Notes: generated by a model from the letters alone, not told the origin. A stretch of DNA of 43,241 bases from Minisyncoccota bacterium (GCA_041660505.1 JBAZWG010000001.1:675768-719008); one strand, 5' to 3'; shown: positions 36,251 to 38,332, counted from the first letter of the stretch. Translations and numbers: made by a program.

Positions 36251-38332
36251 ATGACAGAACGCGAGGTAAAAGAACGTATAACGAAACTGCGAGAGGCGAT
36301 TAATCGGCACCGTTATTTGTATCATGTCGAGAACAAGGCAGAGATAAGCGACGAAGCGCGTGACTCTCTTATGCATGAGCTGGTTGACCTGGAAACCCGA
36401 TTTCCAAGTTTGCTCATGTCTGACTCGCCGTCTCAACGCGTATCCGGCAAGCCTCTGCCCGGATTTACTAAAGTAAAACATGCAGTACCGCAGTGGTCGC
36501 TATCCGACGCGTTCAATGAAGATGAAATAAAGTCTTTCGACGAAAGGGTGAAAAAAAACCTCACCCTAGCCCTCTCCGAAGGAGAGGGAACAAACGCGAA
36601 TCAGAACCCCTCTCCTTCGGAGAGGGGTAGGGGTGAGGTCGGTTATGGTTATACTGCCGAGCTCAAAATAGACGGCTTCCATATCGTGCTGACTTATGAG
36701 AAGGGCAAGCTGGTGCGGGGCGTCACGCGCGGCGACGGTATTGTGGGCGAGGATGTAACGCAGAATATCAAAACTATCGAGGCTATCCCACTAGTGCTCG
36801 AAGAGGCGATAGACATAATAGTCGAGGGCGAGATCTGGATGAGTAAAAAGGAATTCATCAGAATAAATAGAGAACAGGAAAAACAAAAGCTCCCGCTTTA
36901 TGCCAACCCGCGCAACATTGCCGCCGGCACTATACGACAATTAGACTCAAAGGTTGTAGCCTCGCGCAAACTTTCTAACTTTGTTTATGATATTGATAAA
37001 ACAAGCGAGAAGCTTCCTGCCACCCAAGCCGGTGAACTTGCCTTATTACACAAACTCGGTTTTAAGGTAAATACGCATTTCAAAGAATGCAAGAATATAA
37101 ATCAGGTTATAGAGTATTGGAATTATTGGCAAAAGCACAAAGAGCAAGAAGATTATTGGATAGACGGCGTGGTGGTGAAGGTGAATGAGCGTAAACAACA
37201 GGAGGAGATCGGCTATACCGGTAAGGGCCCGCGCTTCGCTATCGCCTTCAAATTCCCGGCCGAACAGGTGACGACTATTGTCGAAGATATTGTCGTACAG
37301 GTTGGCCGGACGGGCGTGCTTACGCCGGTCGCTATAATGAAGCCCGTAAGTGTTGCGGGGACTACTGTCTCGCGCGCTACGCTACATAATGAAGATGAGA
37401 TAAAAAGACTGGGGCTTAAAATTGGTGACAGTGTGATACTGGAGAAATCCGGCGACGTGATACCGAAAATCTTGTCGGTACTAACCGAGCTTCGCACCGG
37501 AAAGGAGAAGTCTTTCAAAATGCCGTCGAAATGTCCGGTCTGTGGCGGCATGGTTGAACGGGATGAAGCATTCGTTGCTTCCCGTTGCATGAACTCTGGT
37601 TGTGATGCCAAGAACAGTCGCAGTCTCTACTATTTTACTTCGAAGACGGCATTCGACGTAGACGGCCTTGGGCCAAAGGTTATCGATCTGCTCGTAGAGA
37701 ATGGCCTGGTCTCAAGGCCGACGGATTTCTTTAAACTTAAGAAGATTGATATAGAATCATTGCCTAGAATGGGGGAGAAGTCGGCAGAGAATCTTATAAA
37801 CGCAATAAACGAAAGAAGAAAAATATCCCTCGCGCGTTTTATAATTTCTCTTGGCATTAATGATGTCGGTGAAGAGACGGCTCATGATTTGGCCGAACAC
37901 TTCGGCAGTATAGAAAAGCTTGCGCGCGCAAGCGAACTTGAACTTAATGAAGTATATGGCATAGGTGATGTGGTTACCAAATCTATTTTAGATTACTTTA
38001 CCAACGAAAAGCACAGGAAACTGGTGAATGATTTGTTGGAAGAAATCCATGTCGAAAAGTCGGAGGTCCGACCTCCGAAAGTCGGAGGTCGGACCTCCGC
38101 GAGTGGGATTTCTGGAAAAACATTCGTACTGACCGGCACGCTCGCGTCTCTCGAACGCGAAGCGGCAAAGGAAAAAATCCGTGAGCTCGGGGGTAAAAGT
38201 TCGGGATCGGTATCCAAGAATACCGACTACGTCGTTGCCGGCGAGAACCCGGGGTCTAAGCTCGATGAAGCGAAGAAGCTCGGGGTTAATATACTTACAG
38301 AATCGGACTTTCTCAAGATGTTGGGAATATGA
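36251..38332 (+). CDS. ligA: NAD-dependent DNA ligase LigA
   Basis: 693 aa. Adenylation motif ELKIDG, OB fold, Zn finger CPVCG..C..C, HhH region, and BRCT ([10 protein letters not shown]). Confidence 0.95.
36559..36638. repeat. 80-bp compound palindrome inside ligA
   Basis: Outer arms CCTCACCCTA / TAGGGGTGAGG enclose two local hairpins, CCCTCTCC-GAA-GGAGAGGG and CCCCTCTCC-TTC-GGAGAGGGG. Confidence 0.9.
38060..38100. repeat. REP-A doublet (copies 5 and 6, opposite orientations) inside ligA
   Basis: TCGGAGGTC-C-GACCTCCGA, then AAG, then TCGGAGGTC-G-GACCTCCG. Confidence 0.95.

Follow-up and report, generated by a model that had tools for sequence, protein, structure and literature searches.

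The window, i.e., the whole 43,241-nucleotide stretch analysed here, belongs to an ultra-small CPR bacterium with a genome of 887 kb (13 contigs, 99.5% complete), of which 92% is coding. It contains ligA, encoding the NAD-dependent DNA ligase, and within the ligA reading frame lie two inverted copies of a 19-nt palindromic repeat, REP-A. Further REP-A copies lie beside and inside a gene for a Y1/HUH transposase, RAYT-1. The features in and next to ligA are listed below in window coordinates.

36251–38332, plus strand: ligA, NAD-dependent DNA ligase, 693 aa, single copy, all domains intact (Pfam and alignment with E. coli LigA)
36564–36632, plus strand: second in-frame ligA doublet, of the unrelated G/C-rich family CCCTCTCC-GAA/TTC-GGAGAGGG; aa 105–128, between domain Ia and KxDG, pLDDT <50
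38057–38101, plus strand: LigA codons 603–617 (K603–A617) of the HhH–BRCT linker, encoded by the doublet; pLDDT <50 at 608–616
38060–38078, plus strand: REP-A unit 1, TCGGAGGTCCGACCTCCGA, 9-bp arms, central C; read S-E-V-R-P-P
38061–38099, no strand: composite REPIN-like hairpin of both units, 18-bp stem and 3-nt loop
38082–38100, plus strand: REP-A unit 2, TCGGAGGTCGGACCTCCGC, central G, 18/19 match; read (V)G-G-R-T-S-A
38348–38381, no strand: third doublet, AAGGTTSAACCTT family, inverted, in the ligA–gatC intergenic spacer

The ligA gene and its palindromes

LigA aligns over its full length with that of E. coli (2owo, E=5.6e-166), scores above cut-off for the Pfam domains Nlig-Ia, adenylation (KxDG), OB, zinc-finger, HhH and BRCT, and retains the invariant residues K139, C428/431/446/451 and T628-G629. 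The gene is intact and, with genome completeness at 99.5%, the sole ligA, and is therefore presumably functional. It is highly improbable that the doublet is an assembly artefact or that ligA is a decaying pseudogene. Assemblers can be misled by palindromic repeats, and the locus is present in one public run only, there as contigs; yet the Logan assembly of that run, made by a second assembler, holds a 7.2-kb contig identical at the locus and free of variants, although the run is probably the source sample and the identical assembly is therefore not independent biological support. The ORF is uninterrupted, with KxDG, the four zinc-finger Cys and GKTFVLTG all present. An earlier sequence-only reading had named disruption of the frame in other reads as the mark of a pseudogene, and the frame is the same in the second assembly.

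REP-A, TCGGAGGTC[C/G]GACCTCCGA, consists of 9-bp arms around one central base. The two ligA units match the REP-A copies flanking RAYT-1 at 19/19 and 18/19 positions, the last base of unit 2 being C and not A, and positions 38055–38105 read AAAAG-TCGGAGGTCCGACCTCCGA-AAG-TCGGAGGTCGGACCTCCGC-GAGTG. The sequence-only reading had described two units at 38060–38100, central C and then central G, 3 nt apart, translated in frame within ligA in the flexible linker just before the BRCT domain; all of this holds. The spacer is AAG, the doublet encodes residues 603–617 of the 693-aa ORF, HHH_2 ends at residue 592, and BRCT starts at about residue 621, just before GKTFVLTG. The composite hairpin of the two units has an MFE of -39.4 kcal/mol as RNA and -24.8 kcal/mol as DNA.

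In an AlphaFold2 model of LigA built from 71 orthologues (mean pLDDT 87), pLDDT falls below 50 only at residues 113–117, 126–128 and 608–616; the last stretch is the REP-A doublet, and the first two are the second, unrelated hairpin doublet. The doublet peptide lies in a coil (603–623) that is preceded by the last HhH helix and a short strand (600–602) and followed by the BRCT strand at 624–628. According to this model, the doublet makes up most of the disordered HhH–BRCT tether, and the ligase would thus be expected to remain functional. A terminator or promoter role of the doublet was set aside, since it lies inside the ORF and is not followed by a T-run. A 125-aa antisense ORF (window 37988–38365, minus strand) spans the doublet; it is likely spurious and is open only because REP-A is free of stops in every frame.

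Of the 10 genomic copies of the family to which the second ligA doublet belongs, 8 lie in ORFs. Over the third doublet (38348–38381), the depth of the metagenome contig jumps about 8-fold, indicating that the AAGGTTSAACCTT hairpin is common to many organisms of the sample. Elsewhere in the window, CTCC-rich heptamer arrays (CCTAACT/CCAAACT) lie at 12004–12072, 33226–33257 and 35719–35750, in recG, a pilD-like gene and a pseudopilin leader; those of recG form an inverted pair that is read as an insert between helicase motifs.

RAYT-1 and the REP-A family

With the search pattern TCGGAGGTCSGACCTCCGA and at most 3 mismatches, six matches were found in the window, versus 0 in 100 dinucleotide shuffles. 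Besides the two ligA units, they are the four singlets given here with the transposase gene.

9783–9801, no strand: REP-A singlet in the 5′ flank of RAYT-1, about 10 nt upstream, central C (pattern match)
9815–10495, plus strand: RAYT-1, Y1/HUH transposase, candidate mobilising enzyme of REP-A; NHFHLML and YIHLNP motifs
9987–10005, no strand: REP-A singlet in frame inside RAYT-1, reads IIGGPTSEN; low-confidence loop
10502–10520, no strand: REP-A singlet 7 nt after the RAYT-1 stop, central G (pattern match)
11146–11164, no strand: REP-A singlet adjoining the recG 3′ end, central G (pattern match)

RAYT-1 matches Pfam Y1_Tnp at 37 bits (cut-off 23), and its best NCBIfam model is REP_Tyr_transpos, at 38 bits and thus below the 80-bit equivalog cut-off. 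A phmmer search of RAYT-1 against PDB chains gave no match. The top PDB fold match of its structural model (pLDDT 86) is 4er8 (E=1.4e-6, TM 0.65 on target), followed by IS608 TnpA and ISDra2 TnpA. Metagenomic orthologues of RAYT-1, with 88% (L059, L060) and 76% (L061, L062) protein identity, also lie beside recG, as in the window, and all four keep an unchanged core, CGGAGGTC-S-GACCTCCG, at the same three positions (5′, inside and 3′). L059 and L060 come from groundwater runs, and their RecG is at 86%. Between these orthologues, then, the repeat has changed less than the enzyme, and the locus has been inherited vertically. Since REP-A was not found in 400 further species representatives of the order, a recent origin had been considered, but these orthologues with identical REP-A overturned it. 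A 28-nt direct repeat (25/28; window 9746–9773 and 11167–11194) brackets the whole RAYT-1 cassette, and both of its copies encode the recG C-terminus, NSKLTHLE-stop, on the minus strand.

Nine intact Y1 genes are present in the 887 kb of the genome. Eight of them have, on both sides, a hairpin family that is theirs alone, and a one-to-one match of this sort is the classical hallmark of RAYT/REP systems. RAYT-like genes also contain their cognate REPs, in frame and at one or two internal loops that are conserved (Y1 paralogues; L045 at 652–674 and 913–935). At the loop that holds the internal REP-A copy of RAYT-1, 40 of 68 homologues have a GGxTS-type, palindrome-derived motif and 3 use the alternative frame. 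An internal hairpin may thus be ancestral and have changed in step with the flanking REPs; it could serve in autoregulation or as a recombination site. The sequence-only reading had placed the RAYT-1 locus 27 kb from the ligA doublet and proposed it as the source of a mobilising enzyme. The measured distance is ~27.6 kb, with RAYT-1 upstream, and its candidacy is strengthened by REP-A copies that bracket and enter the gene, by their retention in the 76–88% orthologues and by the 4er8 fold match. From this architecture and conservation, we infer that RAYT-1 would be the enzyme mobilising REP-A.

Genome-wide, REP-A has 12 copies at 8 loci, with A/T-rich, variable flanks in which the GTAG or CGTC tag is absent. 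Four inverted doublets, with stems of 18–25 bp and spacers of 0, 3, 5 and 6 nt, are found in ligA, in a GT4 glycosyltransferase gene, in the gene of an RseP-type M50 protease and 5′ of rpsJ; their unlike spacers argue that they are not copies of one master REPIN. Three of the four are in frame, in interdomain linkers or loops, the GT4 doublet lying between both Rossmann domains and the protease doublet in a loop. Together with the copy inside RAYT-1, seven of the 12 copies are ORF-internal and in frame (two each in ligA, RseP and GT4), so that REP-A is not extragenic in the manner of REPs. In the RseP-like gene (genome C2:33594-33637), the REP-A-encoded SEVGPP aligns with the conserved E-S-[IL]-x-G-P motif of orthologues. 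The RseP doublet spans 44 nt with a net gain of only 9 codons, and the resident sequence has therefore apparently been part-replaced by a similar peptide.

All six frames of REP-A are free of stop codons. Intragenic copies of three GAGG-core families are read in two frames only (15/15), giving SEV(R/G)PP / AEVKPP or GG(P/R/S)TS, and RRSDLR is used by 0/15; the ligA doublet is read in both frames and yields Gly/Pro/Ser/Thr-rich peptides. In genome-wide statistics, for which genes were taken as greedy longest-ORF calls, the intragenic share is 24/38 for families free of stops in all frames versus 13/39 for stop-containing families (Fisher p=0.012), and the ORFs hold 97 perfect stems of at least 9 bp (25 of at least 12 bp) versus ~20 (and 0) after codon shuffling. 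Frame use, stop content and stem excess are what a survival filter acting at the level of translation would be expected to leave, and they suggest, indirectly, that the copies are translated.

The excess of stems of at least 9 bp in ORFs, like the unlike spacers of the doublets, would also be explained if REP-A had been spread or homogenised without RAYT-1, by gene conversion, template switching or another nuclease, with RAYT-1 being a mere neighbour that also collected copies. We find this improbable, because template switching cannot yield the same 19-mer at six unlinked loci, eight Y1 paralogues pair one-to-one with eight hairpin families, and REP-A stays invariant beside diverging RAYT-1 orthologues.

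The same linker in LigA orthologues

Among 30 genome representatives at 49–60% identity, the linkers comprise 11–17 residues and have no common peptide. The five closest LigAs, at 72–77% identity, form a well-supported clade that is star-like and internally unresolved. A REP-free ligA allele from a close relative was not found among 40 relatives and 5.8 billion proteins, in which nothing was closer than 76% identity. An orthologue alignment had been the check named in the sequence-only reading. Within the five-LigA clade, P0004 and P0005 have no palindrome in the linker; the nearest orthologues, P0002 and P0003 (~75% identity), carry a different one, ACTTGGCGCT-NNN-AGCGCCAAGT, at the same codon. 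In P0002 it is ACTTGGCGCTC-C-GAGCGCCAAGT, read SLGAPSAKS, and in P0003 it is CTTGGCGCT-CAC-AGCGCCAAG, read LGAHSAK. Had palindrome-free orthologues encoded the doublet peptide, this would have counted against an inserted element; their linker peptides are unrelated to it.

The centre of the P0002/P0003 palindrome is the second base of the ninth codon before GK(T)FVLTG, identical to that of REP-A unit 2, and the two palindromes, in common register, are alike at 6/10 stem positions. In the Patescibacteria SAG AM-311-L09, the P0002-type palindrome flanks a Y1 gene and lies twice in frame inside it (L045), and an argS-like ORF carries it in frame as well (L043). Judged by this placement, the P0002/P0003 palindrome is the REP of another Y1 gene. 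G022, a more distant orthologue, has yet another linker hairpin, which belongs to an 8-copy family in its genome. The net gain of the window's linker is 5 codons versus P0002 and 4 versus E. coli, so that the doublet forms most of the linker and is not a simple addition; simple cut-and-paste insertion does not fit the small net gains in ligA and RseP. By sequence comparison, the contrast is more than that of a filled and an empty site: the linker has been reused or overwritten.

A perfect stem of at least 9 bp occurs in this linker in 6 of ~32 distinct ligA orthologues. This recurrence, the shared register and 6/10 likeness just described, and the hairpins of G017 (16-bp stem) and G039, unique in their genomes, could all reflect a selected stem-loop of the ligA mRNA or DNA, e.g., an interdomain translational pause or a protein-binding site, that drifts by compensatory change and resembles the repeats by chance. 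Such a stem-loop is unlikely, given that ~26 orthologues have no linker hairpin, P0004 and P0005 of the same clade included, and that the ligA units are near-perfect matches to the RAYT-flanking REP-A. Moreover, the P0002 palindrome and the G022 hairpin are members of dispersed families, the same doublet occurs in unrelated genes, and a permissive-loop filter accounts for the clustering without any function.

The idea that all linker hairpins of the orthologues are members of repeat families was rejected, as those of G017, G039 and G002 are single-copy. In the G017 hairpin (G017:C2:61334-61362), the 3′ arm encodes the conserved GKVFVL and the 5′ arm looks as if it had been copied from it. The P0002 ligA (L031) has four perfect 9–11-bp stems (nt 150–170, 234–256, 1452–1470 and 1718–1741) in conserved segments, with no insertion or change of length. 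Both cases speak for the spread of palindromes without RAYT-1 weighed above. They suggest that quasi-palindromes are perfected in place, perhaps through template switching, in addition to the mobile REPs; given the unique G017 and G039 hairpins, palindromes in this linker also arise by a non-RAYT process.

Reuse of the ligA linker by REPs could have come about by independent hits on a permissive loop or by in-place replacement of an older REP. An attempt to polarise the switch between REP-A and ACTTGGCGC on the LigA tree failed on the five-member clade, whose lack of internal resolution leaves no choice between the two routes. We lean towards in-place replacement, which is favoured by the identical codon register in ligA and by the GGxTS motif at the RAYT loop in 40 of 68 homologues; the unique G017 and G039 hairpins and the four stems in the P0002 ligA counsel caution. 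At the N-terminal ligA site, the window and P0003 have CCCTCTCC-type doublets, P0002 has a ACTTGGCGC-type 18-nt inverted repeat, and P0004 is empty, and the insert there is additive (+12–27 aa). A speculative extension, about which we are more doubtful than confident, is that this CPR clade has heritable ORF 'slots' for REP hairpins, and that the RAYT/REP family active at a given time overwrites the content of a slot on the spot without disturbing the frame. Candidate slots may be the ligA linker codon, the loop between ligA domain Ia and the adenylation domain, and two loops of the RAYT genes.

Proposed mechanism and comparison with known systems

Taken together, we consider it likely that the ligA doublet is a REPIN-like copy of REP-A, dependent on RAYT-1 and kept in a reused flexible linker. 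E. coli TnpA-REP recognises REP hairpins on single-stranded DNA and copies or exchanges them in vitro. By analogy, RAYT-1 would recognise the REP-A hairpin on single-stranded DNA and would copy or exchange it in trans. With 92% of the genome coding, landing sites would mostly fall within genes, and the copies that survive would be those that keep the frame, bring no stop codon and sit in a loop tolerant of extra flexible residues. The present doublet would have replaced or overwritten an older REP rather than entered a virgin linker.

If so, near-absence of intergenic space need not eliminate a replicator of the REP/RAYT type, which can live on inside essential genes as translated linker sequence. 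The system also offers a compact locus for the question of how RAYTs move or replace their REPs, with one enzyme, one 19-nt hairpin and twelve copies, and the same-codon switch of REP family in ligA would carry over to coding sequence the in-place replacement recently proposed for REPINs. Should slots exist, RAYT-mediated replacement, proposed for extragenic REPINs, would continually rewrite the linker peptides of essential enzymes. A practical consequence is that housekeeping proteins of CPR genomes look more divergent than they are where they carry inserts of this kind, which also give rise to long antisense ORFs.

A literature search for palindromic elements in CPR/Patescibacteria found no report. 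In-frame intragenic REPs as such are already published: Di Nocera, De Gregorio & Rocco 2013 described RAYT-associated GTAG/CGTC REPs read in frame in several phyla, over half of them dimers. Many of these lie in genes of replication and repair, among them the DNA ligase gene of Opitutus terrae, and the recB genes of two Xanthomonas species carry unlike REPs at roughly one position (PMC3733652). What is new here is the CPR/Patescibacteria lineage. REP-A resembles those elements in being short, palindromic, RAYT-associated and in frame, with a dimer in a DNA ligase, but it lacks the GTAG/CGTC tag, its host is a 0.89-Mb CPR bacterium with nine Y1 genes, intragenic copies are its majority, and its insert is 15 aa compared with their 20–30 (PMC3733652).

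The sequence-only reading had likened the doublet to Rickettsia palindromic elements (RPEs), and the analogy with in-frame palindromic elements is apt, with intragenic REPs (PMC3733652) being closer than the ~150-bp RPEs. Described by Ogata et al., RPEs lie in frame in unrelated housekeeping genes at fold-compatible positions (PMC10969869). They share with REP-A the palindromic structure and the in-frame location in housekeeping genes of a reduced genome. However, RPEs span ~100–150 bp, encode a conserved 30–50-aa peptide and have no known cognate transposase, whereas REP-A is 19 nt long, its doublet 41 nt or 15 aa, and it has an evident Y1 partner (PMC10969869).

Several features are shared with the REPIN–RAYT systems of Pseudomonas and Enterobacteria (Bertels & Rainey 2011, PMC3116915; REPORTH preprint, 10.1101/2024.10.14.618302): inverted doublets fold into a long hairpin, REPs flank a vertically inherited Y1 transposase, several RAYT/REP pairs coexist in one genome, and the family switch at one codon of ligA has its counterpart there. 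There, hundreds of REPINs lie outside genes and their spacer is conserved, whereas REP-A has 12 copies, variable spacers and doublets in ORFs. RAYT-1 has the HUH and catalytic Tyr motifs, and its model is most similar in fold to E. coli TnpA-REP bound to a REP hairpin (4er8), but identity is ~12%, and RAYT-1 has a C-terminal extension of ~70 aa and a REP of its own in frame. As REP-A has no GTAG/CGTC tag and is not extragenic, and as RAYT-1 scores below the NCBIfam cut-off, we file the pair as one that would work in the way of REP/RAYT systems, a divergent member of that kind and no separate kind of element.
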